Source of the DNA: Candidatus Latescibacterota bacterium
GTDB taxonomy: Bacteria; Krumholzibacteriota; Krumholzibacteriia; WVZY01
NCBI GenBank assembly: GCA_963791045.1
Contig: CAWBQK010000017.1
Location: forward strand, 96,001 to 160,000
DNA: 64,000 nucleotides
Direction of reading: 5' to 3'
Below the pieces are notes generated by a model, which worked only from the letters and a program-made list of their open reading frames with translations, searched no databases and had not been told where the DNA came from. Both the position numbers and the translations under genes were made by a program. This document shows positions 12,980-43,538 of this stretch, piece by piece. Numbering within the stretch: the stretch's first letter is position 1; each line of letters opens with the position of its first letter.

Positions 12980-13029
12980 CTTTCAGTTGAAACGGTTTCG
13001 ACATGCGTGACCGGGCAAAAGAAGGAAAA

Positions 13030-13350: not shown

Positions 13351-13503
13351 AGGAAAAGGCGGCCGAGGTCGGGGTTGCGCTCGGACGGGCCGTGTGTTAA
13401 TTTGATTATCTAGCAGCGAGTATCATCCACGGAATACATAATGTTATTGGTTGTCAATTTGATCGTGACTTGATCTTCGGTTGCGGAGAAAAAGGAGGCC
13501 AAG

Positions 13504-17973: not shown

Positions 17974-19113
17974 CTATTCGTAACGAAACGCCTTCGAGGC
18001 CAGCACAAGAAGAATCACGGCCGCGAACGCCATTCCCAGGACGTGCGGAAGCACGTCCTGAGGGGGTGCGGCGAAACTGATGATCTTGTGGAGGGCGTCC
18101 ATCGCCCAGCCTGTCGGGAGAAAGAGCTGTATTCTTTGCATCCACGCAGGTGTCACTTCGATCGGCCACCAGCAGCCGCCGAGTGCCGCGAGAATATTCG
18201 CCGATACCACGCCGATCGCCGCCGCCTGACCCTCCGTTCTCGCCAGGCTGCCGAGAAGCATCCCGATCGACGCCATCAAGGCTCCGTAAACGATCATCAC
18301 GGCAATAACGACGGCCAGGTTTGGGCCCCAATCCATTTTGAAAAGAACCGTGCCCGAAATCATCGCGAAGGCTATCTGCACGAGGCCCAGGGTCCACTTT
18401 CCACCCCATTTGCCCACGGTCACGCCAAGGCGTGTGATCGGCGTGTATGCCAGGCGTCGAAGGAGCCCCTGGCGCCTTTCGGTGACCAGCAGGATCGCAC
18501 CGCTCGTTACCATGACCAGAAGCGTGAACATAACCATCATCCCAGGAATTGCCTGTTCAAAACCCGATGGGATCGTTTTTCTTCTTCCGGCCGGTTTGAT
18601 ATCGAGCGTAACCGTGCGGGGAAGTTTGTTGAGTTGTTCGATGTTTTCCAATGTCGGTGAGCCAAAATTCTGAGACGTAACGATTATGTCGGCGAGAATT
18701 GTGTAGATCGCGCGTTTAATTCGAATGGAATCATAGTCGAATCCAACACCGCCGGCGGCGCGGGCGAATTCAATCTTGACGGGTGTTCCGACGAGTACCG
18801 AATCCGTAAATCCTGAAGGGATCGATATACGGCGTCCATATGCCGCGAACAGCGAGTCACTCTCGGGGTAAACGATTTTATATCCGCGGTCAGCCAGGCG
18901 GCGCGAGAGCTGATCGGCGAGGAATCCGGAATTTTCCCCGGATTGGATCGCGAGTGTCTCGGTGCTGGATCTGGGGGGGGAGTACCCGCCGGTGATTTTC
19001 CCAATGAAAAAGAAAAACACAATTGGCATCACAAACACCCAGATAATCGTCTCCTTTGCACGGAGCATATACTTGAGATCTTTGCGTGCGATGAACAGGG
19101 CGTCTTTCAGCAT
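17974..19113 (-). CDS. ABC-2 type exporter permease
   Basis: IARKDL, large extracytoplasmic loop, ERRQGLLRRL..TP, LGGCWWPIE..P.WMQ....LP.GWA. Confidence 0.9.
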   Translation of the reverse strand: MLKDALFIARKDLKYMLRAKETIIWVFVMPIVFFFFIGKITGGYSPPRSSTETLAIQSGENSGFLADQLSRRLADRGYKIVYPESDSLFAAYGRRISIPSGFTDSVLVGTPVKIEFARAAGGVGFDYDSIRIKRAIYTILADIIVTSQNFGSPTLENIEQLNKLPRTVTLDIKPAGRRKTIPSGFEQAIPGMMVMFTLLVMVTSGAILLVTERRQGLLRRLAYTPITRLGVTVGKWGGKWTLGLVQIAFAMISGTVLFKMDWGPNLAVVIAVMIVYGALMASIGMLLGSLARTEGQAAAIGVVSANILAALGGCWWPIEVTPAWMQRIQLFLPTGWAMDALHKIISFAAPPQDVLPHVLGMAFAAVILLVLASKAFRYE

Positions 19114-19117
19114 TGCC

Positions 19118-20365
19118 TCATCCTTGCGCAAATCCGCGCCGCAAACGCTGAGCGCAAACGGCGAATAGAACCGCCACCATCGACAACAGGGCGGCAAAAA
19201 CAATCAACAACGTCATCGGATCCGTCCGCTGGAGGATAATATTCTTAAGCTGCTGAAGCGCCCACCCGTTTGGCGTGAGTTTGCCTATCGCCGCCATCCA
19301 GTCGGGCATGGCCTCGAACGGAAAGAAACTCCCTCCGATCATCATTAACGGGAACATGACGGCCATGGTGAAAATATTGCCCGCCCGCCTTGTTGAACAA
19401 AACAACTGAAGGGTTGTCATGAGTGTCATCAGCATGGTCCCCGAAAATGTCGCCCACACGAGCGCGAGAGGGAGCGAAACGGGGTTGACGCCGATGTACG
19501 TATACCCGATCCCGAGCGCGACGAGTGCGACAACGAAGAAGAGCCCCGCCGCCCCCAACAGTTTGCCCGCCAGAAACAGCGCGACCGGCTGAGGTGAGCA
19601 CACAATGCGTCTGAGGGTGTGTTGCGTCCGTTCGGTCCAGATATCCTCGCTCAACCCCTGGGCCATGAACAACAGGGCCATGAACATGATCGTTGAAATC
19701 AGCAAAAACGCCAGGGGAGGATCGTCGTCACCGCCTTGTTCGGTCTTATCGGTGGATGTTTCGAGCTGAATCAAAAGCGGCGATAAATAAGAGTCGAGAC
19801 CGCCCATCAGAGTATTGATCTTTATGCCCAGCGCGGAGATATCCGAGTTGGGGAATGTGGATGCGCCAACGGGAGGTCCTAGTGCGATTGTTTTTAGTTC
19901 GTCACCGATCATCCGATGTAAATAAAATGTTCCGTCGGCCAACATGCTCAGGCCTTCCTCGACGATGCCGGGAAGAAACCTCTGTGATGGATTTGTAACG
20001 AGTTGAAGCGTGGTTGCTTGTTCCTGGAGAAAGGCGTCGCCAAAACCGTCGGGGATTATTATGAGCGCGGTGGCATCCCCATTATCCATTCGCCGCCGGC
20101 CGTCTTCGCTTTGGACTTCCTCGGCCACAATCATCCCATCCTCGACCCTCTGCTGCATCGCTCCCATGAGCAGGGCGCTGACAAAACTCGCGTCCTCGTC
20201 CGCGACAAGGAGATGAATTTGAGGTTTGGGTCCTCCCTCGCCGCCAAACGCCAAAACGATAAGGAGGCCGATAACAAGAGGAATGCCGATCCACATGAGG
20301 AGCTCCAGCGGGTTCCTGCGATGGCTCCGCCAGTCCTTCATTGCCGTGACCCAGGCAAATCTCAT
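19118..20365 (-). CDS. ABC-2 type exporter permease
   Basis: AMKDW, ERTQHTLRRI..SP, GGSFFPFEAMPDWM..IG..TPNGWA. Confidence 0.9.
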   Translation of the reverse strand: MRFAWVTAMKDWRSHRRNPLELLMWIGIPLVIGLLIVLAFGGEGGPKPQIHLLVADEDASFVSALLMGAMQQRVEDGMIVAEEVQSEDGRRRMDNGDATALIIIPDGFGDAFLQEQATTLQLVTNPSQRFLPGIVEEGLSMLADGTFYLHRMIGDELKTIALGPPVGASTFPNSDISALGIKINTLMGGLDSYLSPLLIQLETSTDKTEQGGDDDPPLAFLLISTIMFMALLFMAQGLSEDIWTERTQHTLRRIVCSPQPVALFLAGKLLGAAGLFFVVALVALGIGYTYIGVNPVSLPLALVWATFSGTMLMTLMTTLQLFCSTRRAGNIFTMAVMFPLMMIGGSFFPFEAMPDWMAAIGKLTPNGWALQQLKNIILQRTDPMTLLIVFAALLSMVAVLFAVCAQRLRRGFAQG

Positions 20366-20398
20366 TGATCGTCTCCACGGGCGTTGAGATAGCTCATA

Positions 20399-21328
20399 CT
20401 ACTCCCGAAGTTCCTTGCCGGTGAGCTTGATGAAAAGGCTCTCGAGGCTTGGCTGGGTCAGCGTGGTATCGCGGACGGTAAAACCGGCGTTTGTCAGCCC
20501 CTCGAGTACCTGTGAGAGTTTCTCGGAACCACGCGGTGTCGCCAGGGTGATTATTGTATCTTCGGATTGGACGATTTCGATGTCATCGACACTTCGCAAC
20601 GCCTCACCCACACGGGCCGGTTCGAATGCTCCGGTGACGCGCAGCACATCCCGTTCGCCGAGGATCGCCCGCAGTTCGCTCAGTGTTCCTTCGGCAATAA
20701 TCTTGCCGTGGTCGATGATCGCCAGGTTGTCACAGAGGTTCTGGGCTTCCTCCATATAGTGCGTTGTGTAAAGAACGGTTGCTCCGCGTTCCGCGAGCGC
20801 GCGGACGAGGTCGAGCAGGTGAACGCGGCTTTGGGGATCGACTCCGACAGTGGGTTCATCGAGGAGGAGAACATCCGGAGTGTGGACGACTCCGCAAGCG
20901 AAGTTCAATCGGCGCTTGAGGCCGCCGCTCAAGGTTCCGGCCCTAGAACCGGCCCTGTCGATAAGTCCGGTGATTTCGAGCGCGTCGTCCGTTTTCTTCT
21001 TCAACTCGGCGCCCCGGAGCCCGTATGCGGCGCCCCAGTACATTATGTTCTCTCGAGCGGAAAGGTCCTCGTAGAGGGCGAGTTCCTGCGGCACAACTCC
21101 AACATTGCGGCGCGATGCGGGCCCCTCGGTTACGACGTTGTATCCGAGAACACGCACGGATCCGGCGCCCGGTTTGATGAGTCCGGATATGCAGCCGATG
21201 GTTGTGGATTTGCCCGCTCCGTTTGGTCCGAGCAGGCCAAATACGGCGCCAGGGTGTGCGGTAAAACTCACGTCGTCGACGGCAAGTATTTCTCCGTACT
21301 GTTTTCGGAGTCCGTTGACCTCGATCAA
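20399..21328 (-). CDS. ABC exporter ATP-binding subunit (DrrA/NodI-like)
   Basis: Walker A GPNGAGKS, signature LSGG, Walker B LLLDEP; TTG start after GGAGG. Confidence 0.93.
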   Translation of the reverse strand: MIEVNGLRKQYGEILAVDDVSFTAHPGAVFGLLGPNGAGKSTTIGCISGLIKPGAGSVRVLGYNVVTEGPASRRNVGVVPQELALYEDLSARENIMYWGAAYGLRGAELKKKTDDALEITGLIDRAGSRAGTLSGGLKRRLNFACGVVHTPDVLLLDEPTVGVDPQSRVHLLDLVRALAERGATVLYTTHYMEEAQNLCDNLAIIDHGKIIAEGTLSELRAILGERDVLRVTGAFEPARVGEALRSVDDIEIVQSEDTIITLATPRGSEKLSQVLEGLTNAGFTVRDTTLTQPSLESLFIKLTGKELRE

Positions 21329-21557
21329 ATGAATCCTCCAGAAAATTGGGGTTGCACGCTCGTCAAGAGCGCCCGTGAATCTAACACGTTCCGGGGATGA
21401 TCGCAATCCGAGGAATTGGTCCCACGGGCCGAGAATGGGGTGTTATTGGGGCGAAGTCATTGCCGTATGGCAGCAAGCTGTGGTAGCATGCGTTATTACA
21501 CAAGGAAGCGGAGTGACCCGCTAAAAAAACGGCTTTTTCAACAGGGAAATAGAAACC

Positions 21558-23313
21558 GTGAACAATAACGACGACACTTCGAAATTGGGGAATGACGGGG
21601 GACTTCCGGAAAACGAAAAAAGCGATTCGTCCCCGGGTCTTGATTTCATTCGCACTCGTATCGTTGAAGACAATACGACGGGTAAGCACAAGGGCCGCGT
21701 ACATACGAGGTTTCCGCCGGAGCCCAATGGGTATTTCCACATCGGGCATGCGAAATCGATTTGTCTGAATTTCGGACTCGCCCAGGAGTTCAACGGACTT
21801 TGCAATCTTCGCATGGATGATACGGATCCGAGCAAAGAGAGCATGGAGTATGTCGAGTCGATAAAGACGGATATTCGGTGGCTCGGGTTCGATTGGGAGG
21901 ATCGGATGTATTTTGCGTCGGATTATTTCGATCAGCTTTACGAATGGGCGATAAAGCTCATCAAGGACGGCAAGGCGTACGTGTGCAGCCTCAGACGACG
22001 AAGAGATTCGTAAGTACAGGGGGACGGTAACCGAGCCGGGTAAGCCAAGTCCCTACCGAGACCGCCCGGTCGAGGAGAATCTGGATCTTTTCAACGAGAT
22101 GAAGAACGGGGAGTTTGAAGACGGCGAGCGAGTGCTCCGGGCCAAGATCGACATGGCGTCGCCGAATATGAAGATGCGCGACCCGCTCATGTACCGGATA
22201 CGGCACATGAGTCATTACCGGACGGGTGACAAATGGTGTATCTATCCGATGTACGATTTTACGCACGGTCAGTCGGATTCGATCGAAAGCATCACCCACT
22301 CGATTTGCACGCTCGAGTTTGAAAACAACCGCGCGCTTTACGACTGGTTCCTCGATGAACTGGACATCTTCCATCCGCAGCAGATCGAGTTTGCCCGGCT
22401 CAACCTGAGCCACACGGTGATGAGCAAGCGACGGCTTCTGGAACTGGTCGAAGAGGGGCGGGTCATCTGGGTGGGACGATCCGCGGATGCCGACGATTTC
22501 GGGGCTGCGCCGACGCGGATACAGCCCGGAGGCGATCCGTGCGTTTTGTGACCGCATCGGTGTGGCCAAAGTGCGAAGCACGGTTGACATCGCTCTTCTC
22601 GAGCATTGTCTTCGCGAGGATCTGAACAGGCGGGCCACGCGGGTTATGGCGGTGCTGCGATCCGCTTCGTGTGGTGATCGAGAACTACCCGGAAGATCAG
22701 GTCGAGGAACTCGATGCGATCAACAACCCGGAGGATCCGAACGCGGGGACGCGGAAGATTCCGTTCTCGCGGGTGATCTACATCGAGCGTGATGATTTTC
22801 AGCGAGGATCCGCCGAAGAAATTTTTCCGGCTGGCGCCCGGGCGCGAGGTGCGGCTCAAGCTACGCGTACTTCATCACCTGCAAGGAGGTGATCAAGGAC
22901 GAACGACGGGCGAAATCGTCGAGCTTCGGTGCACGTACGATCCCGAGACCAAGAGCGGGTCGGCGCCCGACGGGCGCAAGGTGAAGGGGACACTCCACTG
23001 GGTATCCGCCGAGCACGCGATCGATGCCGAGGTGCGGTTGTACGAACCGTTGTTCGACTCGGCGAATCCGTTGGCCGAAGGCGGAGAGGATTACAAGAGA
23101 CTTATCAACCCCAACTCTCTTGAGGTTCTAAGCGGTTGCAAAGTCGAATCGAGTCTGCGTGACGCAGCGCCGGGCGATTACTATCAGTTCTTACGTCAGG
23201 GATACTTCTCGATCGACCCGGTCGATTCGGGCCCGGATGGCCTGGTGTTCAATCGGTCTGTTGGGTTGCGGGATTCGTGGGCCAAAATCGAGAAATCACA
23301 GAAAAAACCATAG
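21558..23313 (+). CDS. glnS: Glutamine--tRNA ligase (about six apparent frameshifts)
   Basis: [84 protein letters not shown], spread across frames. Confidence 0.92.
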
Positions 23314-24996: not shown

Positions 24997-25908
24997 CTAT
25001 TCTTCCGAAGGCACGAATACGCTCAGCGCCTGGGGAACCGACTTGATCTCGATACTCGTTTCTTCCATCGTGAATACCTCGCCGTCGACTTCATACCGGA
25101 CCGGTTCCTCGCATGTCACCGTAAATCTGGATGACTGGGAAATCCCGACCTTCTCATGTCCGCGGTGCTTGCCCTTCGCAACCCTGGAGAAGAGTCGCAC
25201 GCGATTTATGGGACCGACATTGTAGATCGAAACCGCGTCGAGCATGCCGTCGTCGAGGCGGGCGTCGGGAGCAATGTGGAAAGAGCCGCCGAAGAAGTTA
25301 CCGTTGGATATTGTGAGCATCAGATGGGCCTGTTTGGTTTTCCGCCCGTCGCTGTCTGTCAGTTCGATCGGTATGCCACGAAACTTGAATAGCTGCCTCA
25401 GCGCGCAGAACTGGTAGAGCGCGTCACCCTGCAGAACGGGGAAATGCTCGGCGTCATCGATGACGGCGATGTCGAATCCAAACCCCACGACGTTGAGGAA
25501 ATACCTGTCGCCTACGCGTCCGACGTCGATCGTACGGCGCCGTCCGTCCGCGATTCCTTTTATAACCGCTTCCACACGGTCAGCGCGAACTCCAATTGAT
25601 TTTCCGAAATCGTTGCCCGTGCCGGCGGGGAGGAGCCCGAGGGTGACGTCGTGTCGCCCGGCGCGGGCAATGCGGTCCGAAACGCTGCTCCACGTTCCGT
25701 CACCGCCGACGGCTACGATTGCCGGGTAGCCGGCGTCCAACGCGCGATCGGTCAATTCAGCTTCGTCTCCGGGATGTGTGGTGACGACATGATCGTAATT
25801 ACCGAGATAACGGTCGAGAAGCGGTCGGTATATATCGATGAGTTTGCGGCCGCGGCCGCGACCGGCGGATGGATTGAAGATCACATAGTGGGAACGAGCC
25901 GATGGCAT
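24997..25908 (-). CDS. Diacylglycerol/sphingosine kinase family lipid kinase
   Basis: NPSAG, GGDGT, LPAGTGNDF, GFD, N..FFGG, DDG.LD, VDGE. Confidence 0.9.
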   Translation of the reverse strand: MPSARSHYVIFNPSAGRGRGRKLIDIYRPLLDRYLGNYDHVVTTHPGDEAELTDRALDAGYPAIVAVGGDGTWSSVSDRIARAGRHDVTLGLLPAGTGNDFGKSIGVRADRVEAVIKGIADGRRRTIDVGRVGDRYFLNVVGFGFDIAVIDDAEHFPVLQGDALYQFCALRQLFKFRGIPIELTDSDGRKTKQAHLMLTISNGNFFGGSFHIAPDARLDDGMLDAVSIYNVGPINRVRLFSRVAKGKHRGHEKVGISQSSRFTVTCEEPVRYEVDGEVFTMEETSIEIKSVPQALSVFVPSEE

Positions 25909-25944
25909 CGGTTGGATATTTGAGGTTGGGGTTTAAGGTTGCCG

Positions 25945-26607
25945 TCAGATGGGTTCGAGTTCTTCGAACGTTTGAACGCCGTCCTTCATCCACATTTCTC
26001 TGAATGGATACGTTGCGATTTCATCGATGCGGAGCTTCTCGCACATCGGATGGTCGTGAAGGATTAGCTCGCCGGTTTCCTCTTCGTGCTGGGAGAACTT
26101 GCCGTCGAAATAAACGTTAACTTTGAACTGCTCCGACTCGCTATTCATGAAAGACTGGTAGAGTTCGTGGGTGTCGACCCATGTGTGCTCGCTGATTTTA
26201 ATCTCGACGATCGGGTTGTCGTTTTCGTGGACGCGGACGGACAGGCGTCCTTCGGCGTTTTTGAAGTCGACGGCGATGTCCTTCATGTAATGGGGCAGAT
26301 GCCAGCGCTCGATCGCGTGCTCGCGCGCGGCTTCGGTGCTGGTCGCAACAAGAAATGGATAAAATGCCGATTTTGGCAGCTGCTCACCCGATTTGACCAC
26401 GGGTGGGACGATAACGGCAAGGACGACTTCGGTGTAGGGGCCGACCATGCTTTCATTGAAATCAAACGCGGTGACGGCGAAGACACCCTGTCCGTGACGT
26501 ATCTCCATCGGGTGGAGATGAGGCGGAAGCAACTCCCGCGCGTTATCACTGGGCATTGCGAAGAAAGCATTGGCCGCGATTTTAAAACCGTATTTTGTCA
26601 GTGGCAT
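25945..26607 (-). CDS. Acetoacetate decarboxylase-fold protein
   Basis: LLPP.L.P, F....VGPYTEVVLAV; the GRE.WG.PK motif position reads AIERWHLPH. Confidence 0.7.
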   Translation of the reverse strand: MPLTKYGFKIAANAFFAMPSDNARELLPPHLHPMEIRHGQGVFAVTAFDFNESMVGPYTEVVLAVIVPPVVKSGEQLPKSAFYPFLVATSTEAAREHAIERWHLPHYMKDIAVDFKNAEGRLSVRVHENDNPIVEIKISEHTWVDTHELYQSFMNSESEQFKVNVYFDGKFSQHEEETGELILHDHPMCEKLRIDEIATYPFREMWMKDGVQTFEELEPI

Positions 26608-27968
26608 AGTCCGTATCTCTCCAGGACACGTTTGATGATATCGGCGCCTTCGGCCAGATCTTCTTTGGAATGGCCGGCCGTGACGGAGATCCGGAAGCGT
26701 GACCGGTGCTTGCCGACGGCGGGGTAACGAACGGGGTTGAGGTAGACGCCTTCGTGAATAATGTCTTCCGCTATTTTGAAGATCCTGTCATCGTCACGCA
26801 CCATGATCGGGATGACTTGTGACTCGGAGTCCCCGATATCGACACCCGCTTTACGCAGGCGATCCTGCATGAACGCGACGTTGTCCCACAATTTGGTTCT
26901 GAGTTCGGGTTCGTTCTGAACGATTTCAAGGGCCTTAAGTATGCCGGCCGTGACGCCGGGCGGGAGCGCGCAAGAGAACACTCTGGAGCGGGCAAATCCC
27001 TTCAGATATGTGATGAGGGTCTCGGATCCGGCCACGAATCCGCCGATGCCGCCAAGAGTCTTCGAGAACGTGCCGAAGTGGATATCCACCTCGTCGTCCA
27101 GACCGAAGTGCTCGGCCACTCCTCGACCGTTCTTGCCAAAGAGAAACGTCGAATGGGCTTCGTCGATCATAATGCGGGCGCCGTGACGTTTGCATACTTC
27201 CACGATCTCGGGAAGTTTTGCGAGGTCGCCGTCCATCGAGTAGACACCCTCGACGATTACGAGCTTTTTACCCTTGAAACCTTTGAGCTTGCGATCAAGA
27301 TCGCCGACGCTGTTGTGTCGGAAGTAACGCACGCTGGCTTTCGACAAAATGATGCCGTCGATGATGCTGGCATGCGCGTACTGATCGGTGACGACGAGGT
27401 CGCCGGATCGCATGAGACCGGATATGACACCGAGGTTGGCGCTGTAGCCCGAAGGGAAAAGCAATGCATGTTGTTTGTTTTTGAAAACTGCGATTTTGTG
27501 GGCGAGTTCGTCATGAAGATCTATCGTGCCGCTTAGAATCGGGGAACCGGAGGCCCCGGAGCCGTATTTCCGCGTGGCTTCGATTATCGCCTCAATGATC
27601 TCGGGCCGGTAGGACAGGCCCAGGTAATTGTATGAGGCAAGATTGATCCGGTTTTTCAGTTCCTTGTTGGTTTTCGTCTCGACAATATCGATCCGTGTAC
27701 CGGGGCCGGTCTTCATGGGAAGGCCGAAAAGGTAATATCCGGCCGGTCGGGCATCCTTGAACCATTCTTCGAAAGGCTCGAAGATATCGAAGACATCATC
27801 GCCGGCGCCCCAAAAGAAGTTACTGTAATCGTAGTCGAGCGTACTGTCGGTGGTATGGGCATCCACTGGCGCGTTTGTCTCAGCGGCCGATTCCTGGGTG
27901 TCGGCGGCTTTATCCGCGGCTGCCTCATCGGCGGCTCGTTTTTGTGCTTGTTGTCTTGACGAATCCAC
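26598..27968 (-). CDS. PLP-dependent alpha-oxoamine synthase, serine palmitoyltransferase-like
   Basis: NYLGL, GSGASGS..LSGT, SGYSANLG, HASIIDG, VEGVYSMDGD, DEAHS, GTFSK(PLP-Lys)TLG; lipid-gene neighbourhood. Confidence 0.85.
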   Translation of the reverse strand: MDSSRQQAQKRAADEAAADKAADTQESAAETNAPVDAHTTDSTLDYDYSNFFWGAGDDVFDIFEPFEEWFKDARPAGYYLFGLPMKTGPGTRIDIVETKTNKELKNRINLASYNYLGLSYRPEIIEAIIEATRKYGSGASGSPILSGTIDLHDELAHKIAVFKNKQHALLFPSGYSANLGVISGLMRSGDLVVTDQYAHASIIDGIILSKASVRYFRHNSVGDLDRKLKGFKGKKLVIVEGVYSMDGDLAKLPEIVEVCKRHGARIMIDEAHSTFLFGKNGRGVAEHFGLDDEVDIHFGTFSKTLGGIGGFVAGSETLITYLKGFARSRVFSCALPPGVTAGILKALEIVQNEPELRTKLWDNVAFMQDRLRKAGVDIGDSESQVIPIMVRDDDRIFKIAEDIIHEGVYLNPVRYPAVGKHRSRFRISVTAGHSKEDLAEGADIIKRVLERYGLCH

Positions 27969-28090
27969 GTTACTCGGTTTAGGTTAAGGGTGTTACTCCA
28001 CTTTGTGCCAATAATCTGTGAATGTCAAGAGTCGAAAAGGCACGGCTTCGGCCAGCACATTGATAACATAACGGGATTCCGGAGGAAAGC

Positions 28091-28873
28091 ATTTTTTTTA
28101 AGCGCCTGAGGGGCTATATCACGATAACGATAGCCGGGCTCGCCTTCTTGATGTGCGACCTTATACAACGAACGTTAATTGTTGTGTTAATTAAAGTTAT
28201 GCCGTCAAAGAAGGAGAAGGTGAAGATATGGTGGATGGAAGTGTGCGCTGAAGTGGCGCTTGGATCCCTCAAGTGGATTGGCGGTGCACGGTTTGACATC
28301 CGCGGCCATATCGCGGCGCGCCCGGGCGTGCTTCTTCTAATGAACCATCAGTCCCTCATAGATATACCGGTGTTGGGCAAGGTCGTTACCGGCAGCTATC
28401 CGAGCGTGATCGCACGCGCGCGTTATGCTCGAGGCATCCCTCTGATTTCACACATGATTCGGTTGTATAACCACATAACGGTCACCCCGGGCGATCGGGA
28501 TCGGGGTCAGCTGAGGGAAATCCGAAGACGGGCAATGGTGATTGAGCAGCCTCTTGGAGTGTATGCCGAGGGGACACGCTCAAGAGACGGCGAGTTGCAA
28601 CCATTCCGGACATCGGGTTTGAGGACGATTCTGACGTGCCGGAAATGGGAGGTTTACATCGTGGTTGTCGATGGGTTGTGGAAGGCAGGGCGGTTCAACG
28701 ACCTGGTGTCCAATGTCAGTTCGATCGATGCCGTCGCCGATGTGGTTGGGCCGTTCGAGTTTTTGCCCGAAAGGGACAATGCAAGGGAATTTATTCTGGA
28801 TATGGAACGACGGATGGGTGATAAACTCGCACAAATGCGTCACGGGAATAGTAACGTGCCGGATGGAGCCTAG
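28091..28873 (+). CDS. PlsC-family (lysophospholipid) acyltransferase
   Basis: NHQSLID (HX4D) and YAEGTRSRDG motifs. The frame is open upstream of TTG 28148, to an ATT at 28091 that sits 5 nt after GGAGG. Confidence 0.85.
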   Translation: MFFKRLRGYITITIAGLAFLMCDLIQRTLIVVLIKVMPSKKEKVKIWWMEVCAEVALGSLKWIGGARFDIRGHIAARPGVLLLMNHQSLIDIPVLGKVVTGSYPSVIARARYARGIPLISHMIRLYNHITVTPGDRDRGQLREIRRRAMVIEQPLGVYAEGTRSRDGELQPFRTSGLRTILTCRKWEVYIVVVDGLWKAGRFNDLVSNVSSIDAVADVVGPFEFLPERDNAREFILDMERRMGDKLAQMRHGNSNVPDGA

Positions 28874-28894
28874 GTAGTTTTTCAAAGCGATTTA

Positions 28895-29986
28895 ATGACG
28901 GACGAAACCAGAAATATGACAACCCATGGAGGCGGGAACGAACGCAAGAGTGTCGTTCATGCTCTTCGGCCCGACGCACCCGGCGGACAGCGATCGGCGG
29001 CGAGGGACGTTGCACCGCAGGTGGTGGAGAGCCTGAAGATTATCGGCGATGCCTGTGGGTCCAATCTGGCCGCCGTGATTTTCTTCGGATCGGTTCTTGT
29101 CGCAACGTCACCGAGCAAAGACAGCGCGGCCGACCTGTTTGTGGTCGTGGAAGATTACGAACGGTTCTATCGGGATATCGGATCGCGATTGCCTCAGGCT
29201 CGACGCGCGAGCATCATGGCCGCGCTCAACAGAATGCTTCCACCCAACGTAATTTATCTCAAGGATCCGGGGGCGTTGCGCGCCGGGGCGAAGTGTTTCG
29301 TGATTAGTCGCAAGGATCTCTCCGTCGGACTCTCGAGGGAGGCGAAGGATCATTTTTGCCGGGGACGGCTCGTGCAGCGGATTCAAATCGTGTACTCGCG
29401 GGATCCGCAGGTACGTGAGGAAATCGAGATGGGGCTCGAAACGGCCCGGCGGGTAGCCCTTGAATGGGTCCCGCTGTATTTGCGGGGATCGTTTACCGTG
29501 CTCGAATTTTGCCTTCGAATGTTGGAAGTGTCTTATGCCGGCGAGATCCGGCCGGAGTCGAAATCGAGGGTGCTCGAAGTTTGCAATGCCCAGAAATCCT
29601 ACTTCCGATTGATGTACGGGCGTTTGCTTGGGGAGGCGGCAAGTGAGGGGTACCTCGAGAAGGAAGAGGATACATACAGGAGGCACAAACCGCCGACGTT
29701 TCGCGAGAAGTTCGAATGGCGGTTGTTTTTTGTGCAGTCAAAGATGCGTGCGACGCTGCGATGGTTCAAATATATGCTCACGTTTGATGATTGGCTCGAT
29801 TACATCGCGCGTAAGGCGGAGCGGCGCACGGGCGTCCGTGTCGAGTTGACGAAATCGGAGCGTCGTTTTCCAGCGCTCCTGCTCTGGCCCAAGCTATTTC
29901 GAGTCCTGAAAGCGATGGGTTTGAGCGAGCGGGTTGACACTCGACGCGACGGTGGAACAACCGAAGAGAATGGTGATCAAAAATGA
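28895..29986 (+). CDS. Nucleotidyltransferase-fold protein, possibly Tam41/Mmp37-like lipid cytidylyltransferase
   Basis: IFFGS...AADLFVVVEDY NTase signature, LNR.LPPNV, SYAGEIRPE; overlaps the downstream CDP-alcohol transferase by ATGA. Confidence 0.55.
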   Translation: MTDETRNMTTHGGGNERKSVVHALRPDAPGGQRSAARDVAPQVVESLKIIGDACGSNLAAVIFFGSVLVATSPSKDSAADLFVVVEDYERFYRDIGSRLPQARRASIMAALNRMLPPNVIYLKDPGALRAGAKCFVISRKDLSVGLSREAKDHFCRGRLVQRIQIVYSRDPQVREEIEMGLETARRVALEWVPLYLRGSFTVLEFCLRMLEVSYAGEIRPESKSRVLEVCNAQKSYFRLMYGRLLGEAASEGYLEKEEDTYRRHKPPTFREKFEWRLFFVQSKMRATLRWFKYMLTFDDWLDYIARKAERRTGVRVELTKSERRFPALLLWPKLFRVLKAMGLSERVDTRRDGGTTEENGDQK

Positions 29987-30720
29987 GAAGCGAACTCCTG
30001 GTTCTCGTTCTGGCCCTGGGGACGATTGTTTTCTCGATGGTTGTGTTTCTCATGACTCCCGCTGGAAGAATCGGACAGGACCGCACCGGTCGCGGCGGAA
30101 GTTTTTTTATGGGTTTCTGGGTGAGGAACTGGTTTTACTGGTTTATCGCGCCGGTTACGCGGGTGTCGCTTGCGTTGCGACTGTCTCCGTTTGTTTACAA
30201 CGTTCTTGCCGTACTGTTTGGGATCGCGAGCATGGTGTTTTACATTCGCGGTCAACTCCCGTGGGCCGGCTGGATGATTTTGCTCAGCGGTTTTGCCGAC
30301 GTGATGGATGGGGAAGTAGCGCGCGGTAGAAATATGGCCAATGCGGCGGGCGCTTTTCTCGATTCTACGTTGGACAGGTTCAGTGAGTTCGCCGCGTTTA
30401 TCGGTCTTGCTGTTTTCTACGGGTCGGGCGCTTCCGGCGTCTGGGTCTTGATTGCGCTTGGGGGTTCGCTCCTTGTCAGCTACACCCGTGCGCGTGGGGA
30501 GAGTCTCGGGGTTCTTTGCAAGGCGGGGTTGATGCAGCGCGCTGAAAGAATGCTGATTCTTGGTTTGGGTTCGATCCTTGATCCGTCGATTTCGAGCGCG
30601 TTCGGACGTCAGCAGGGATTCGTGTTGTTGATTTTGATAATCGTGATCGCGGTTGGGACCGTGGGTACGGCTATTTACCGGACGGCGTGGATCTCGCGGA
30701 AGCTCGAGGGGAAGCAGTAA
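29983..30720 (+). CDS. CDP-alcohol phosphatidyltransferase
   Basis: DVMDGEVAR...GAFLDSTLDR signature; SYTRARGE and G.MQRAER as in PIP/AIP-synthase-like members. Confidence 0.92.
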   Translation: MRSELLVLVLALGTIVFSMVVFLMTPAGRIGQDRTGRGGSFFMGFWVRNWFYWFIAPVTRVSLALRLSPFVYNVLAVLFGIASMVFYIRGQLPWAGWMILLSGFADVMDGEVARGRNMANAAGAFLDSTLDRFSEFAAFIGLAVFYGSGASGVWVLIALGGSLLVSYTRARGESLGVLCKAGLMQRAERMLILGLGSILDPSISSAFGRQQGFVLLILIIVIAVGTVGTAIYRTAWISRKLEGKQ

Positions 30721-31378
30721 CCGGCTCGTCGCCAGTCTGTTGGACGTCTTCATCAACGCCCGCCTCATTCGATTTCTTTTTCCTGTCATCCAAACGGCTT
30801 TTTACAATCGTCACAGCAAGAAGTGCGAGCGCGAGAGCCACGAGACTCCAGTTGGGGAGTCTGAGCATGTGGCCGAGGTAGGCGATCGCCCAGTAGCGGG
30901 GTGTGCGCCCCACAACCAGCGCGAGGAGATAACGTTTGAGGGGATACTTGTCGCCAAAACTCAGGAATTTGATCGGATAGAATGGAATTGGCGTGAGACC
31001 TACGACAACAAGGGCCCAAAAAGGAGATTTTCGGAACAGGACGACCGAACGTTGATAAAGGCTAAAGCTGGCATACTTGGAACGGATCCTCGGGTGGTGC
31101 ATCAGGGGGATAAAAAGCCAGTAATCCCAAATGCCGGCGATCAAGCACCCAATGACCGACGCGATGGCGCAGGCGGTCGCAGAATAATATTTGGCAAAAT
31201 ACAAGAGGACGGGTTCGTGCGAGAAGGGGGAGATAAACATGTGCGAGGGAATTGTGTAAAGCCCAAGCCACAACAACCCTCGTTCGGCGGGATACATAAG
31301 GGCGAAGAGGAGAGACGCAACCGCAAGGATCACGGCGCTTACTCCAAAACTGATCCAGCTATTTTTGCTTGATATCAC
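30671..31378 (-). CDS. DedA/VTT (SNARE-associated) family membrane protein
   Basis: Multiple TM helices; G...AG..DY, GLTPIPF.P.K, GRTPRY. Start is GTG 31378 or ATG 31420. Confidence 0.75.
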   Translation of the reverse strand: MISSKNSWISFGVSAVILAVASLLFALMYPAERGLLWLGLYTIPSHMFISPFSHEPVLLYFAKYYSATACAIASVIGCLIAGIWDYWLFIPLMHHPRIRSKYASFSLYQRSVVLFRKSPFWALVVVGLTPIPFYPIKFLSFGDKYPLKRYLLALVVGRTPRYWAIAYLGHMLRLPNWSLVALALALLAVTIVKSRLDDRKKKSNEAGVDEDVQQTGDEPVTASPRASARSTPSGK

Positions 31379-32399
31379 CGTTCGATTCCGTTGAAGGTTG
31401 GGTTGCGCGACGGCCGCCATTTCGTTTGGAGAATGGCAGGTGAACGGTGTTGTTCTTGATGCTTTTCAGAACGGCCTTCGCAACCGATGGGAAATCATTG
31501 TCGACTTTGGACGCGCGGTAAACGCAGAATACCGAACATCCTTTTTCGCACCCTTTCTTCAGATTTCTCTGCTCTTCGATGTCCGCCCGCGTGTATTCGA
31601 GGATCGGCTTGTTGAGTCGTCCGCGCTGTGACGCGCAGTACTGAGCCATGCCGAACTCGTCGATATAGATGTGACGAGCGCCCGCGCGGCAGTGCCAGTC
31701 GGGTGTTTTTCCCTCGAGAAGATCCTTCCCGTATTCGTACTCGATATACGAAATGACCTTCGAATTGTCATGGTGGTAGTCCCACAGATCGATATATTCC
31801 TGGCCGGAAATCACGGTCTCTCCCCGGTCGTCGTGGAGCAGGTTGACCGTGACGGGAATGTCCATGTTCTTTAGCTCGGTGACGATTTCCTTGAATTCCG
31901 GTTTTGATTCGTCGCAGAGAACGATGTTTGCGTGGACGCTGAAATCAGCTCGCCGCAGAAGGAGTTCGACCTTTTTCTGGACCGTCTTGAGCGATTTCTG
32001 GATGTACATGTTCTCTCGAGGCTTGAGAGTATCGATGCTGATCTGGAGGTGGCCGAGACGCGCCGCGTTCAAGCGGTCGATGATTTTCTCGCTGACGAGA
32101 AAACCGTTTGTAGTGAGTGACGTTTGCGACGCCCGGTTCGCGCGAACAACGATCTTGTCCACATCTTCGTGCAGAAGGGGCTCGCCGCCGAGCAGAGCGA
32201 TCTGTGCCACACCGAGGCGGTGCAGGGCATCGATCCATTGTTCGACCTGGGCGTACGGAATCGATTTCGAGTGATTATCGTATTCGGTGCAGTAGCCGCA
32301 GCTGAGATTGCAGCGCCGGGTGACGATGATCTGGGCTTCCAGGAAAGACTTCCGGATAAATATGTTGTTTAACATCCTCAACGGCGACGATATACGCAT
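31359..32399 (-). CDS. Radical SAM enzyme with C-terminal Cys-rich (twitch/SPASM-like) domain
   Basis: CNLSCGYC, GGEPLL, TTNG, ISID; C-terminal CRAG...YIDEFG..QYC...CEKGCSVFC. Confidence 0.9.
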   Translation of the reverse strand: MRISSPLRMLNNIFIRKSFLEAQIIVTRRCNLSCGYCTEYDNHSKSIPYAQVEQWIDALHRLGVAQIALLGGEPLLHEDVDKIVVRANRASQTSLTTNGFLVSEKIIDRLNAARLGHLQISIDTLKPRENMYIQKSLKTVQKKVELLLRRADFSVHANIVLCDESKPEFKEIVTELKNMDIPVTVNLLHDDRGETVISGQEYIDLWDYHHDNSKVISYIEYEYGKDLLEGKTPDWHCRAGARHIYIDEFGMAQYCASQRGRLNKPILEYTRADIEEQRNLKKGCEKGCSVFCVYRASKVDNDFPSVAKAVLKSIKNNTVHLPFSKRNGGRRATQPSTESNGDIKQK

Positions 32400-35167: not shown

Positions 35168-35200
35168 GACGGGTTACTGGCATTGCAAAGAGGAGAACGA

Positions 35201-35905
35201 ATGAACATTCAAGGGTCAAAAATATTGATAACGGGCGGTTCGCTGGGGATCGGTAAGGTGACGGCGAGGGTTCTGGTCGACGCCGGCGCATCCGTGGTTA
35301 TTACGGGCAGAGATGCGGAGCGAATTCAGGCGGCGGAGAAAGAGACCGGAGCCAGGGGCGTCGTCGCCGATGTTCGGAACAGCGCCGACATAGATAAAAC
35401 ATTCGATTTTGTCGGTGACACCCTCGGCGGTCTCGACTGTCTCATTAACAACGCTGGAATCGGTTCGCTCAAAAGACTGGGTGATGTCTCGATCGGTGAT
35501 TTCGAAAAAGTGTTCGAAACCAATGTGTACGGCGCCGCCTTGATGGCCCAACGTGCGGCGGAGATCTTTAAAGAACAAAAACGGGGCGATATCATAAATA
35601 TTGGATCGACGGCATCGCTCAAAGGGTACGAGCGCGGATCGGTGTATGTGGCCAGCAAGTTCGCGCTTCGCGGGATGACGATGTGCTGGCAGGCGGAACT
35701 GAGGAAGTACAATATTCGTGTCATGCTGGTCAATCCGAGCGAGGTTCCGACGGCGATTGCCAGTCGCGATCGGGTTGAAAGGACCGGCCCGCCCAACAAA
35801 CTCAGTTCGTTCGAGATCGCACACTCGATCAAGTCGGTTCTGGAGATGGACAACAGGGGGTTCATCCCCGAATTTTCCGTGTGGGCTACGAATCCGTGGT
35901 CCTGA
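35201..35905 (+). CDS. Short-chain dehydrogenase/reductase
   Basis: TGGSLGIG, NNAG, YVASK catalytic motif. Confidence 0.92.
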   Translation: MNIQGSKILITGGSLGIGKVTARVLVDAGASVVITGRDAERIQAAEKETGARGVVADVRNSADIDKTFDFVGDTLGGLDCLINNAGIGSLKRLGDVSIGDFEKVFETNVYGAALMAQRAAEIFKEQKRGDIINIGSTASLKGYERGSVYVASKFALRGMTMCWQAELRKYNIRVMLVNPSEVPTAIASRDRVERTGPPNKLSSFEIAHSIKSVLEMDNRGFIPEFSVWATNPWS

Positions 35906-37574: not shown

Positions 37575-39641
37575 ATGAAAAAAAAGACGCAAATCTATAC
37601 GACCGGATGCCCCCGAAACTGTTACAGCACGTGTACCATGACCGTTCATGTCGAAGACGGTCGCCTCGTCAAAATAGAACCTCACCTCGGCAATAAGGCG
37701 ACTTTTGAGGGACCGTGCCTCAAAGGACTCGCCTATGTCGAACGCGCGCACTCGCCCGACCGGATACTCGATCCAGTCCTGAAAAACCCGAACAACGGAG
37801 AATTCAGAAAGATTTCCTGGGACGATGCTTTTGATCTAATCACCGGGAATCTGATCCGTCTTCGGAGTGAGTATGGTCCACAGAGCGTTCTGTATTACAA
37901 CGGTAGCGGGACAAAAGGGCTGTTGAACGGTGTCGGGATGTCCTTCTGGCGCTTGTTTGGCGGTTGTTCGACAACCTACGGAGATCTGTGCTGGCCGGCG
38001 GGGCTCGAAGCCACCAGGTTGATGCTCGGCGAAAACAAGCACAATGCCCCGTGGGATATCGCAAACGCGAAGCTCGTGATTCTTTGGGGAAAGAACACAG
38101 CCGAGACCAACATCCACCAGATGGTTTTTATAAACCAGGCGCTCGACAACGGCGCACGACTTGTTGTGATCGATCCGCGCCGGACGGAATCCTCCGAGCG
38201 CGCCGAGCTTCTCATCCAACCAAGACCCGGCTCGGACGGCGCCCTCGCGCTTGCGCTTGCGCGACTTGTGATAGAAAACGGCAATGTCGATCGGGCGTTT
38301 GTGGATGAGCACGTTTTGGGTTTTCCGGAATTTGAGCAAATGGTGGCGGATGCGACGCCGGAGTGGGCGGCGTCGATTACGGATGTGCCGGTGGAATATA
38401 TTCGCAGGTTGGCGGAATTCATCGGAACAATCAAGCCGGTGACAATAAATGCCGGTTTTGGAATGCAGCGCTATACCAACAGCGGCCAGACGATGCGGGC
38501 GATGATCGCTCTGCTCGCCCTCACCGGCAATGTTGGACGGCCGGGCGCCGGGTGGATCTTTGCAAACCTCCAAAGCCATATCTTCGACGACGTCAAAGAC
38601 CCGATTGCGTTCTACCCACCTGACGAGCCGGACGGTGTTGTTCGTGTTGGTGTGTCGACGAGTCGTCTCGGCCAGGACATATTGTCCGCCTCGGATCCGC
38701 CGCTGAAAATGATATGGGTCGAACGCGGTAATCCCGTCACGCAGAATCCCGAAACGAACACGGTGCTCAACGCGTTTCGTTCGCTTGACTTCCGGGTCGT
38801 GGTAGAACAGTTCATGACCGACACCGCCAGAGAAGCCGACCTCGTCCTGCCGGCAAAATCGATGTTCGAACAAACCGACGTGATCAATGCCTATTGGCAT
38901 CCTTATATCCAATTGAAACAAAAATCTTTTGATCCCCCGGGGAACGTGAAACCCGAAACGGAAATCTATTATCGCCTCGCACAACGGTTGGGGATCGATG
39001 AGAAAGTGGTAGCTGAAAACATCCCCGGCGCAACGGATGCGGATGTTGAAGCCTATCTCGAACGGCGGCTCGAGCCGTTTCCGGAACTGACACTCGAGCG
39101 TCTTCGTGAGGGGCCGATATTGGCGCCCGGGCATCAGGAAATCGCATTTTCCGATTTTGTATTTTCCACGCCGTCGGGAAAGATTGAACTCGTATCGCAG
39201 GAAGCGAAGGATCGCTGGGGAGTGGATCCGCTCCCGCGGTACAGCGAGCCGGTTGAGTCGATACGTACCGCCGGGGCGCGATCGGGACGCTACCCGCTCT
39301 ATTTTATGACGCCGAATACCAAGAACCGGATTCATTCCCAGTTCAACAATCTCGAGATGATCCGCAGGTTGAGCCCGGCGCCGTTTGTCGCGATTCACCC
39401 CGATGACGCAAGCGAGCGCGGAATCGACGCGGGATCACGCGCACGTGTGTTCAACGACCGCGGTTCGATTGAAGTCGATGTTCAGATCGATTTTGGTATC
39501 AAGCGGGGATGTGTGTCGGTAACAAACGGCTGGTGGATACAGGAAGGCGGGACGGTGAACTTTTGTTCGTTTGGGCGCGAAACCGACATGGCCCATGGAG
39601 CGGCTTTTCATGACAATCTGGTCGACGTAGAGCGGGTGTAA
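37575..39641 (+). CDS. Molybdopterin-dependent oxidoreductase catalytic subunit (DMSO reductase superfamily, no Tat signal)
   Basis: CPRNCYSTC...CLKG FeS motif, ISWDDA, VVIDPRRT, PRPGSD, FMTDTAREADLVLPA, IHSQF, IHPDDA.ERGI. Confidence 0.92.
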   Translation: MKKKTQIYTTGCPRNCYSTCTMTVHVEDGRLVKIEPHLGNKATFEGPCLKGLAYVERAHSPDRILDPVLKNPNNGEFRKISWDDAFDLITGNLIRLRSEYGPQSVLYYNGSGTKGLLNGVGMSFWRLFGGCSTTYGDLCWPAGLEATRLMLGENKHNAPWDIANAKLVILWGKNTAETNIHQMVFINQALDNGARLVVIDPRRTESSERAELLIQPRPGSDGALALALARLVIENGNVDRAFVDEHVLGFPEFEQMVADATPEWAASITDVPVEYIRRLAEFIGTIKPVTINAGFGMQRYTNSGQTMRAMIALLALTGNVGRPGAGWIFANLQSHIFDDVKDPIAFYPPDEPDGVVRVGVSTSRLGQDILSASDPPLKMIWVERGNPVTQNPETNTVLNAFRSLDFRVVVEQFMTDTAREADLVLPAKSMFEQTDVINAYWHPYIQLKQKSFDPPGNVKPETEIYYRLAQRLGIDEKVVAENIPGATDADVEAYLERRLEPFPELTLERLREGPILAPGHQEIAFSDFVFSTPSGKIELVSQEAKDRWGVDPLPRYSEPVESIRTAGARSGRYPLYFMTPNTKNRIHSQFNNLEMIRRLSPAPFVAIHPDDASERGIDAGSRARVFNDRGSIEVDVQIDFGIKRGCVSVTNGWWIQEGGTVNFCSFGRETDMAHGAAFHDNLVDVERV

Positions 39642-41014: not shown

Positions 41015-41119
41015 ACACCGGCCTCGGGCCGGCCCCCACACCCTTGTGGGGGGGGGCGACCAATCTTGCTAACGAAAATTTCGATCGACGAGACGGATCA
41101 ACCGCCGGTCACGATTAGT

Positions 41120-41746
41120 CTAGTCGTGACCCGGAGGATTCCTGTCAATGACGACCTGGAATGTCACCGCGACACGCCACTTGAACGAAAGCGGGTCAGC
41201 CGCTGAAGGTTCCGGCGTGACGGTTCCGGCATCCATGGTCAGGATCAAGCGCGGATCCATGCCCGCGACGAGATCAACGAGCGCTCTGTCGACAAGCGCC
41301 ACGCCGTCCGAGTTGAGGTCGGCGTAGATCGCCATGTCCTTCGCGGCCATGAGTGACTGATCCGTCATGTTGACGAATGTCGCCGGACCGTCATCCAGGG
41401 CTTCCCCCGGGGTATCCTGACGCTTGATCGTCACGGCGGACGAAACCACCCAATCGTGTTCCGAGGTAAGCCTCTGGACCATGTAGGTACCGCTCACGAT
41501 ATGGATGGACCTGATGTCCTTGACCTTTGTGTCGTGCTTCTCGAGAAGCTTGTACACTCGGTCCGCAAAGTCATCGCAGACAACCGCGCTGCCCAGGGTT
41601 GGGCTCTCACGATATTCGTCGAGGGAGATTTTCACCGTTTCGGTGATAACCACTTCGGTCGACATATCGTCGTATACACAGCCGCTCGCGAGAACGAGAA
41701 CACAGAGAATGGGAAGCACGGCAACGCTCAAGATTGCCTTCTTCAT
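41120..41746 (-). CDS. Hypothetical lipoprotein (paralog 2)
   Basis: Lipobox ASGC; colinear similarity to 41860..42480. Confidence 0.75.
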   Translation of the reverse strand: MKKAILSVAVLPILCVLVLASGCVYDDMSTEVVITETVKISLDEYRESPTLGSAVVCDDFADRVYKLLEKHDTKVKDIRSIHIVSGTYMVQRLTSEHDWVVSSAVTIKRQDTPGEALDDGPATFVNMTDQSLMAAKDMAIYADLNSDGVALVDRALVDLVAGMDPRLILTMDAGTVTPEPSAADPLSFKWRVAVTFQVVIDRNPPGHD

Positions 41747-41859
41747 GGTTCACGCTCCTGTCGTTAGGGACGATGCCTGATGGCCGGGGCGTGGCCTTCA
41801 CGCGCCGGCCGCCACTTGATGTATTTACTCGGCGCCCTTCTTGACACCTCTTGCTGCAA

Positions 41860-42480: not shown

Positions 42481-42496
42481 TGTGCACGCTCCTGTT

Positions 42497-43416: not shown

Positions 43417-43538
43417 TAATCTCTCCCGGTCGAATTTCTAATGCCTTGCATATGATTCTATCACAATGGCTTATTATTTTCAAGAGATAAAGCCCGCTGG
43501 TATGCATCAAACGGGATGTTTGGGCTTGAGGTGGTGGG

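Follow-up and report, generated by a model that had tools for sequence, protein, structure and literature searches.

A conserved six-gene lipid cluster around an SPT-like synthase in a Candidatus Latescibacterota genome: a candidate phosphosphingolipid pathway

We analyzed a 64,000-nt stretch of DNA (hereafter the window; positions 96,001 to 160,000 of the forward strand of contig CAWBQK010000017.1, assembly GCA_963791045.1) from a Candidatus Latescibacterota bacterium, and describe here a compact cluster of putative lipid biosynthesis genes at positions 24997-32399. The source is a metagenome-assembled genome (MAG) of 3.66 Mb that is 81% complete, and the near relatives of the proteins come from MAGs named Latescibacteria, Krumholzibacteria and Gemmatimonadetes. 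The cluster consists of eight intact open reading frames (ORFs) in three units. This gene content had been proposed in an original prediction made from the sequence alone; all eight ORFs were confirmed with their coordinates and strands, and each was assigned to a family.

The first unit, on the minus strand, begins with a 456-aa alpha-oxoamine synthase resembling serine palmitoyltransferase (SPT) (spt, 26598-27968; PF00155, 198 bits), whose ~45 N-terminal residues are variable. The second gene encodes a 220-aa protein of the acetoacetate decarboxylase (ADC) fold (adc, 25945-26607; PF06314, 30.0 against a cut-off of 29.8) and overlaps spt by 10 nt. The third encodes a soluble lipid kinase of the YegS/DgkB type with a GGDG motif (24997-25908; PF00781, 95 bits; PF19279, 96 bits). 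The second unit, on the plus strand, includes a PlsC/LPLAT-type acyltransferase (28148-28873; PF01553, 58 bits; HX4D motif), a Tam41/Mmp37-like cytidylyltransferase (28895-29986; PF09139, 33.3 bits against a cut-off of 24, over 125 residues) and a cytidine diphosphate (CDP)-alcohol phosphotransferase with the full signature motif (cdpOH, 29983-30720; PF01066, 48 bits); the last two genes overlap by 4 nt. These two operons, referred to below as A and B, form a six-gene core of ~5.7 kb that is intact in this window. They are separated by a divergent intergenic region of 179 nt (27969-28147) that presumably holds their promoters. A scan for sigma-70 promoters and terminators gave nothing above shuffled sequences; the lineage may use other promoters. 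The third unit is convergent to operon B on the minus strand and consists of a radical SAM enzyme (31359-32399; PF04055, 77 bits; CX3CX2C motif) and a DedA/VTT-like membrane protein (30671-31420; PF09335, 29.7 bits, under the cut-off of 33.9). As originally predicted, the cluster has no recognizable bacterial ceramide synthase (bCerS), CerR or acyl carrier protein (ACP): Pfam detected no GNAT, epimerase-type reductase or ACP domain in the cluster or its flanks, and all intergenic gaps are too short for an ACP gene.

Conservation of the cluster was analyzed in two sets of loci. The first set was drawn from the phylum sample of the window, which contains 151 genomes; the Tam41-like protein was used as a probe and ten of the resulting loci were compared. 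The six-gene core is complete in nine of them. The exception is the closed genome G079, where the ADC-fold gene is truncated and the kinase is missing. In its locus L028 (C1:2630500-2650499), 144 of the 220 ADC-fold residues align at ~12998-13573, and no kinase or radical SAM gene was found next to the cluster; this copy may be decaying. For the second set, the ADC-fold alignment was scanned over one genome per species, which yielded 309 relatives. The best 80 of their loci, all from MAGs, were examined for gene content by tblastn; many of them end at contig edges. Among the lineage names of these 80 best loci are Latescibacterota, Krumholzibacteriota, Gemmatimonadota/Longimicrobiales, Vicinamibacteria/Acidobacteriota, Eisenbacteria and 'Gammaproteobacteria'. 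The kinase is present in 78 loci, PlsC in 73, Tam41 in 71, spt in 70 and cdpOH in 62. In Vicinamibacteria the genes lie on one strand in the order rSAM-SDR-spt-adc-kinase-PlsC-Tam41-cdpOH, where SDR is a short-chain dehydrogenase/reductase.

The core recurs across phyla, and the arrangement is far beyond chance. The original prediction treated all eight genes as one cluster; conservation holds for the core and fails for the remaining two: radical SAM genes were found in 10 of the 80 loci, with orthologs in 4 of the 151 phylum genomes (all four cluster-bearing), and DedA genes in 4 of the 80. Since these genes occur in few loci, the conserved unit is six genes rather than eight, and radical SAM and DedA are accessory. 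We conclude that the lipid cluster is real and intact, with six widely conserved genes and two accessory ones.

The Tam41-like gene was found in 21 of the 151 phylum genomes. A synthase ortholog (at least 69% identity) is encoded in 20 of these and is absent from the remaining 130 genomes; in the 21st, the Tam41-like gene sits on a 2.9-kb contig. A second sample comprised 401 genomes from the phylum of one MAG labelled 'Gammaproteobacteria', with loci that resemble the Gemmatimonadota type and no Caulobacter-like CpgC among the genes recovered. There, Tam41-like genes are present in 53 genomes and ADC-fold genes in 48 (both in 46, Tam41 only in 7, ADC only in 2, neither in 346); one Tam41-only genome, G314, enters these counts only. 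Four Tam41-only loci consist of a Tam41-cdpOH pair, with a kinase in two of the four and PlsC in none. Conversely, spt-adc-kinase stands alone in four loci (L052, L066, L174 and L175), again with PlsC in none of the four, so that all PlsC-like genes observed occur together with both parts. The cluster is therefore composed of two modules that are usually found side by side. One cluster-bearing MAG encodes a further, distant Tam41-like gene elsewhere in its genome (G157:C37:40121-41014; 121 bits to the profile).

The synthase reaches no NCBIfam equivalog: it scores 375 bits against the CFB-type SPT model NF047600 (cut-off 640), 372 against bioF (426) and 341 against Kbl (460), and its score against the BioF/Kbl-family model, 376 bits, is nearly equal to the first two. 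Its nearest solved relative is the Sphingobacterium SPT (290 bits); further solved relatives are Thermus BioF/KBL (252 bits), Sphingomonas SPT (245 bits) and cysteate acyltransferase (224 bits). Residues K303 (in TFSK), H199, D269 and H272 are invariant in 34 sequences, and we take K303 to be the active-site lysine that binds pyridoxal phosphate (PLP) in the alpha-oxoamine synthase fold. The remaining alpha-oxoamine synthases of the 151 phylum genomes share at most 44% identity with the cluster synthase. NCBIfam labels 19 of these paralogs as follows: eight Kbl above the cut-off, nine CFB-SPT-like (500-607 bits against the cut-off of 640), one BioF-like and one ambiguous. Three cluster-bearing genomes, G126, G079 and G114, also have a separate Kbl above the cut-off. 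In a maximum-likelihood tree of 34 rows, three clades are separate: that of the cluster synthase (100/100), the CFB-SPT-like one (100/99) and Kbl (100/100). Judged by this sequence comparison, the synthase is most likely neither Kbl nor BioF and appears to form a distinct SPT-like clade. Two of the three outcomes that the original prediction had named as speaking against it thus came out in its favour, since the synthase groups with neither Kbl nor the BioF-like paralog and the gene set is conserved.

The spt gene is absent between PlsC and adc in 9 of the 80 loci, and an ortholog was located elsewhere in all five searched genomes that have no spt in the cluster. In the genome of the window, a second alpha-oxoamine-synthase-like stretch (C11:362588-363214; 32% identity, residues 186-391) contains two in-frame TGA codons and may be a broken Kbl or BioF gene; no intact second alpha-oxoamine synthase was seen in this 81%-complete MAG.

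The AlphaFold model of the ADC-fold protein (pLDDT 92.3) is matched best by Foldseek to MppR (4JMC), the aldolase-dehydratase Sbi00515 (6EEJ) and ADC (3BH2), with E-values of ~1e-11 and TM-scores of 0.63-0.69. Among 42 aligned members of this family, His, Glu, Arg, Trp and Tyr residues are invariant, and no invariant or nearly invariant lysine was found; because a conserved lysine is lacking, the protein is not a Schiff-base ADC. In all five genomes with a relocated spt, this gene is trailed by a second, more divergent ADC-fold gene (41-51% identity). In these genomes the conserved adc copy stays with the kinase, and the divergent copy is translationally coupled to spt. At least two ADC-fold copies are present in 21 of the 48 ADC-bearing genomes of the second sample. 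The ADC-fold protein is tied to the synthase and also to the kinase, which adjoins it in 78 of the 80 loci. A complex of synthase and ADC-fold protein was predicted with a score of 0.48, compared with 0.01 for the best of three controls; at least 91% of the contacts are the same between runs, and the partner pLDDT is at least 90. Of 80 solved complexes, 58 pass the mark applied to such predictions, as do 2 of 110 mismatched pairs; those that pass with a score of 0.60 or lower are just 7 of the 80 solved complexes and both of the mismatched pairs. The prediction thus lends weak support to a complex between the two proteins. The ADC-fold protein could act as a subunit, a lipid hand-over protein, a lysine-independent beta-keto acid decarboxylase or an acyltransferase. 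Five singleton fusions of the ADC-fold domain were also inspected; three are read-throughs that start mid-synthase and carry partial domains, and these are probably gene-calling artefacts rather than Rosetta-stone evidence. The kinase passes the TIGR00147 model (165 bits against a cut-off of 118.65) and would phosphorylate the 1-position of either a long-chain base or ceramide.

Operon B encodes the other three enzymes of the core. The PlsC-like protein carries its HX4D motif as HQSLID at residue 67; it scores 41 against the AGPAT model TIGR00530 (cut-off 103), and its nearest characterized relative is the PlsC of structure 5kym. For the Tam41-like protein (model pLDDT 85.2), the five best Foldseek chains in the PDB are all Tam41 (6ig4, 6ig2, 7ecd; E-values of 2e-9 to 1e-7), and the next matches have E-values of 1e-4 or weaker. 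Superposition with 7ecd gives a target TM-score of 0.71 at an rmsd of 3.7. Identity to the solved Tam41 proteins is 14-17% and the profile-to-PDB E-value is just 0.27, with an SY.GEIR stretch aligned. This gene is single in the genome, which also encodes CdsA. The CDP-alcohol phosphotransferase has several hydrophobic segments and the signature DxxDGxxAR..G..D..D from D106. Its nearest solved structures are phosphatidylinositol phosphate (PIP) synthases (5d92, 6h53, 6wm5), PgsA reaching just 19 bits, and it stays below the curated cut-offs for archaetidylinositol phosphate synthase (AIPS; 134 against 180), PIPSynth (102 against 170) and the BT1523 type (109 against 350). Four further CDP-alcohol transferases are encoded in the genome. 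One of them is better PIP-synthase-like (AIPS 152; PIPSynth 143 against 170) and is present in 143 of the 151 phylum genomes, including all 21 that bear the cluster. Because CdsA and this phylum-wide gene are already encoded, the Tam41-like and PIP-synthase-like genes of the cluster are extras, and as extras on top of a housekeeping route they argue for a special lipid substrate.

Myo-inositol-phosphate synthase (MIPS, PF07994) is encoded in 144 of the 151 phylum genomes (20 of the 21 with the cluster and 124 of the 130 without it). In the genome of the window it lies at G000:C15:199378-200481 (L129:5337-6655) in several frames, split over two ORFs (191 and 341 aa). Most relatives have it as one uninterrupted frame. 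An inositol monophosphatase gene lies two genes away. The split reflects either a frameshift or an assembly error.

We propose, with a probability of about one half, that the six-gene core encodes a two-operon phosphosphingolipid pathway, which proceeds through a long-chain base, its 1-phosphate, N-acylation and a CDP-lipid to an inositol-phosphate-type head group. From the gene identities, folds, motifs, conservation and co-occurrence described above we infer its substrates, the order of its steps, the head group and the existence of CDP-ceramide. The SPT-like synthase would condense serine and an acyl thioester into a 3-keto long-chain base, with the help of its ADC-fold partner, and the keto group would be reduced by an enzyme encoded elsewhere. 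The kinase would then phosphorylate the 1-hydroxyl of the base, and operon B would treat the resulting long-chain-base 1-phosphate as an analogue of lyso-phosphatidate. N-acylation of the base phosphate by the PlsC-like enzyme, which would bridge both modules, would give ceramide 1-phosphate, from which the Tam41-like enzyme would form CDP-ceramide by cytidylylation. Finally, the PIP-synthase-like transferase would move ceramide-phosphate onto an alcohol acceptor, for which inositol 1-phosphate is the most likely choice. The genes of both operons are arranged in an order that agrees with a Kennedy pathway copied for sphingoid lipids. The original prediction had placed acylation before phosphorylation; gene order and module distribution would be better explained by phosphorylation first.

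The candidate for the reduction step is a 339-aa classical SDR (G000:C11:170271-171287; L128:7269-8288, minus strand). The SDR encoded directly upstream of spt in Vicinamibacteria has its best match in this protein (41% identity), which is present in 18 of the 21 cluster-bearing genomes versus 16 of the 130 others, although the genomes counted are related and not independent. Its gene adjoins that of a PALP-family PLP enzyme. The SDR of the window itself (35183-35905) was considered as the spt-linked reductase and rejected, as it is not the best match to the Vicinamibacteria SDR.

Several points weigh against this pathway. The reductase gene is not in the cluster. The synthase misses the other curated SPT cut-offs too (NF047599, 340 against 500; NF047603, 281 against 670). 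Support for placing its clade on the CFB-SPT-like side is not strong (89/76), and the reference clades of the tree are labelled by NCBIfam scores and include no experimentally characterized sequence. The nearest solved relative of the kinase is the diacylglycerol kinase DgkB (2qv7, 90 bits), the known substrate of Tam41 is phosphatidate, and we know of no firm precedent for N-acylation by a PlsC-type enzyme. MIPS, being near-universal, is uninformative for the cluster. The profile PF09139 matched none of 14 control genomes, Caulobacter included, and the Tam41-like protein was compared with Caulobacter CpgC (see below) by family profile only. A cluster-type synthase was found in none of the five Tam41-only genomes searched, and spt-adc-kinase occurs without a Tam41-like gene in two genomes, which were searched in full. 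Since the Tam41-cdpOH pair occurs without a cluster-type synthase, the head-group half can, to judge from gene content, act on something besides the product of this synthase. The CDP-activated lipid intermediate of the original prediction is plausible, and a glycerolipid substrate is therefore also possible.

The main alternative, which we nevertheless consider rather unlikely, is that two linked but separate routes share the locus. Operon B, perhaps with the kinase, would then be a glycerolipid path from lyso-phosphatidate or diacylglycerol through phosphatidate and CDP-diacylglycerol to phosphatidylinositol (PI) phosphate, and the SPT-like and ADC-fold proteins would make a base or ceramide by other means. 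The routes would meet only at the end, for example with PI donating phosphoinositol to ceramide, as happens in yeast and Bacteroides, and the kinase recycling diacylglycerol, or would make envelope lipids that are merely co-regulated. The nearest characterized relatives of the enzymes involved (DgkB, PlsC 5kym, Tam41 and the PIP synthases) all act on glycerolipids, as this alternative expects. It also accommodates the near-universal MIPS and the separability of the modules in both directions: Tam41-like and cdpOH genes, with or without the kinase, occur without a cluster-type SPT or ADC in all five genomes tested, and two genomes with spt-adc-kinase have no Tam41-like gene. However, a second plain PI route would be redundant beside CdsA and the better, phylum-wide PIP-synthase-like gene, and it leaves the co-occurrence of Tam41-like gene and synthase (20 of 21 versus 0 of 130) to be accounted for. 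Moreover, the kinase stays with the ADC-fold gene, which is itself tied to spt, the PlsC-like gene is missing from all four Tam41-only loci, and no IPC-synthase-like gene lies within the cluster.

Quite unlikely, in our view, is a synthase that uses another amino acid (glycine, alanine, threonine or cysteate) and yields a non-canonical amino lipid, for example a 1-deoxy base, a base of the sulfonolipid type or an amino-ketone, with the ADC-fold protein maybe acting as a lysine-independent decarboxylase. The separate clade of the synthase, the absence of any SPT cut-off reached, the equal scores of BioF/Kbl-type models and the clear relationship to cysteate acyltransferase (224 bits) are all compatible with such a substrate. 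So is the ancestral chemistry of the ADC fold, which is beta-keto acid decarboxylation, and its invariant His and Glu could form a metal site. The nearest solved relative is an SPT, however, and the kinase, the CDP activation and the transferase would all need a free hydroxyl, which C1 of serine would provide and glycine, alanine and cysteate would not. That the synthase is a housekeeping BioF or Kbl among unrelated neighbours, as the level scores of the bioF, BioF/Kbl-family and SPT models and the lack of a second intact alpha-oxoamine synthase in this incomplete MAG could suggest, is very improbable and largely refuted by the separate Kbl of the closed or near-complete relatives G126, G079 and G114, by the own 100/100 clade of the cluster synthase, by its restriction to Tam41-bearing genomes and by its synteny with lipid genes across phyla.

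In the phosphosphingolipid pathway that we prefer, the radical SAM and DedA proteins would be lineage-restricted add-ons, responsible for a modification and a possible flipping step. The radical SAM enzyme has the cysteines C30, C34 and C37 of the CX3CX2C motif and five C-terminal cysteines, and reaches no equivalog. Among the ten phylum loci, its gene lies beside the cluster in one and that of DedA in two. In Vicinamibacteria, a radical SAM gene stands beside SDR-spt; its product shares 33-36% identity with the copy in the window, which is also its best match in this genome (184 bits versus 48 for the next). The DedA/VTT-like protein has about four hydrophobic segments. In a Proteobacteria-labelled MAG, a VTT/DedA protein (L098:8590-9141, plus strand; 42.8 bits, above the cut-off) is encoded 13 nt past the kinase; no BLASTP similarity was found between it and the DedA of the window, so that the DedA link recurs at the family level only. 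The ORF after Tam41 in the same locus was considered as the transferase and rejected, being unrelated to cdpOH.

To the right of the cluster, an amidase, a bPH protein and an SDR were tried as members of the unit and rejected, as they are near the cluster only within the order. The amidase is near the cluster in six of the ten phylum loci and in 2 of the 80 ADC-anchored loci, and in family f2 a peptidase and an oxidoreductase separate the amidase/bPH/SDR group from the cluster. An ABC-2 type exporter (an ATPase and two permeases; 17974-21406, minus strand) lies 3.6 kb left of the kinase, and ABC ATPase matches (29-65% identity) are near the cluster in 7 of the 80 loci. Between the exporter and the kinase, a stand-alone ORF of 174 aa (22789-23313, plus strand) encodes only the anticodon-binding C-terminal domain of class I Glu/Gln-tRNA synthetases (PF20974, 78 bits). 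The region 37575-44720 encodes a molybdopterin oxidoreductase that has a 4Fe-4S dicluster subunit; a MOT1-type molybdate transporter and a DUF6588 protein are encoded on the opposite strand. None of these genes is related to the lipid cluster.

If the proposed pathway is correct, sphingolipids, likely of the inositol phosphoceramide type, would be made by abundant uncultured phyla of soils, sediments and sponges for which none are described; this would matter for tracing the origin of sphingolipid biomarkers in the environment. Ceramide assembly would do without the bacterial ceramide synthase and reductase genes known so far, CDP-activated ceramide, suggested for Caulobacter and never shown, would exist, and an ADC-fold protein would have a new role beside a PLP enzyme. 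A more far-reaching claim, which we regard as possible and put forward only tentatively, is that of a third independent bacterial sphingolipid route. It would be Kennedy-like, with a lysine-less ADC-fold partner (a subunit, hand-over protein or metal-type decarboxylase), a base that is phosphorylated first, PlsC-type N-acylation in place of a ceramide synthase, CDP-ceramide, and a PIP-synthase paralog that adds inositol phosphate; such a route would be common among uncultured Latescibacterota, Krumholzibacteriota, Gemmatimonadota and Vicinamibacteria.

Our literature searches found no published description of this cluster, nothing on sphingolipids or SPT in Latescibacterota or on spt or ceramide synthase in Gemmatimonadota, and nothing that joins Tam41 to bacterial sphingolipids or deals with CDP-ceramide; a search for acetoacetate decarboxylase with bacterial serine palmitoyltransferase gave only an unrelated review. 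A Black Sea study describes Spt-like genes in MAGs of 38 phyla, many of them without neighbouring bCerS or CerR, and raises the possibility of non-homologous replacement (PMC11334938). The supplementary lists of that study may already include these lineages.

The closest known parallel is the spt-cpgA/B/C(/D) locus of Caulobacter crescentus, which serves the synthesis of ceramide phosphoglycerate lipids (PMC9393093, PMC11324152, PMC12275187). CpgB is described as a ceramide kinase (PMC11324152, PMC12275187) and CpgA as a CDP-alcohol transferase with a PgsA domain. CpgC (CC_1161) is credited with a CDP-DAG-synthase-like InterPro domain, and an NDP-activated ceramide is suggested (PMC11324152, PMC9393093), whereas Zik et al. 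give CpgC no conserved domain. The published locus resembles the cluster in having an spt gene with a YegS/LCB5-type lipid kinase and a CDP-alcohol phosphotransferase beside it, and so bears out the parallel drawn in the original prediction. Unlike it, the cluster has no bCerS, CerR, AcpR or AasR and instead encodes the PlsC-like and ADC-fold proteins. (PF13444 was tried as a stand-in for bCerS; it has no match in the genome of the window and none in the Caulobacter control either, and is not a valid proxy.) The transferase is PIP-synthase-like, whereas CpgA is described as PgsA-like, and the head group here probably differs.

With the general bacterial ceramide pathway the cluster shares the Spt-type start, but it contains neither a GNAT-type synthase nor an epimerase-type reductase. 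That pathway reportedly comprises Spt, bCerS and CerR (Stankeviciute and coworkers, 2022). The Tam41/Mmp37 CDP-diacylglycerol synthases of S. pombe (6IG2/6IG4) and Firmicutes (7ECD) have the same fold as the Tam41-like protein, which passes their Pfam cut-off; in contrast to them, its gene adjoins spt in a genome that also has CdsA, and its substrate would be ceramide 1-phosphate rather than phosphatidate. The PIP and AIP synthases (Renibacterium 5D91/5D92, Mycobacterium 6H53, NCBIfam NF040950/NF045883 and the Bacteroides BT_1523 type from the inositol-lipid cluster) share the CDP-alcohol signature with cdpOH, whose nearest families are inositol-phosphate users, whereas cdpOH itself is a second, more divergent paralog under three curated cut-offs. 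The inositol phosphoceramide of Bacteroides is said to be made from PI and not from CDP-ceramide (Heaver and coworkers, 2022). With the ADC superfamily the ADC-fold protein shares the beta-cone fold, but it is shorter (220 aa), lacks the lysine and is always encoded behind an SPT-like gene. Among bacterial phosphosphingolipid clusters, the unusual parts of this one are thus its ADC-fold partner, the PlsC-like enzyme in the place of a ceramide synthase, and the head-group route through Tam41-like and PIP-synthase-like enzymes.

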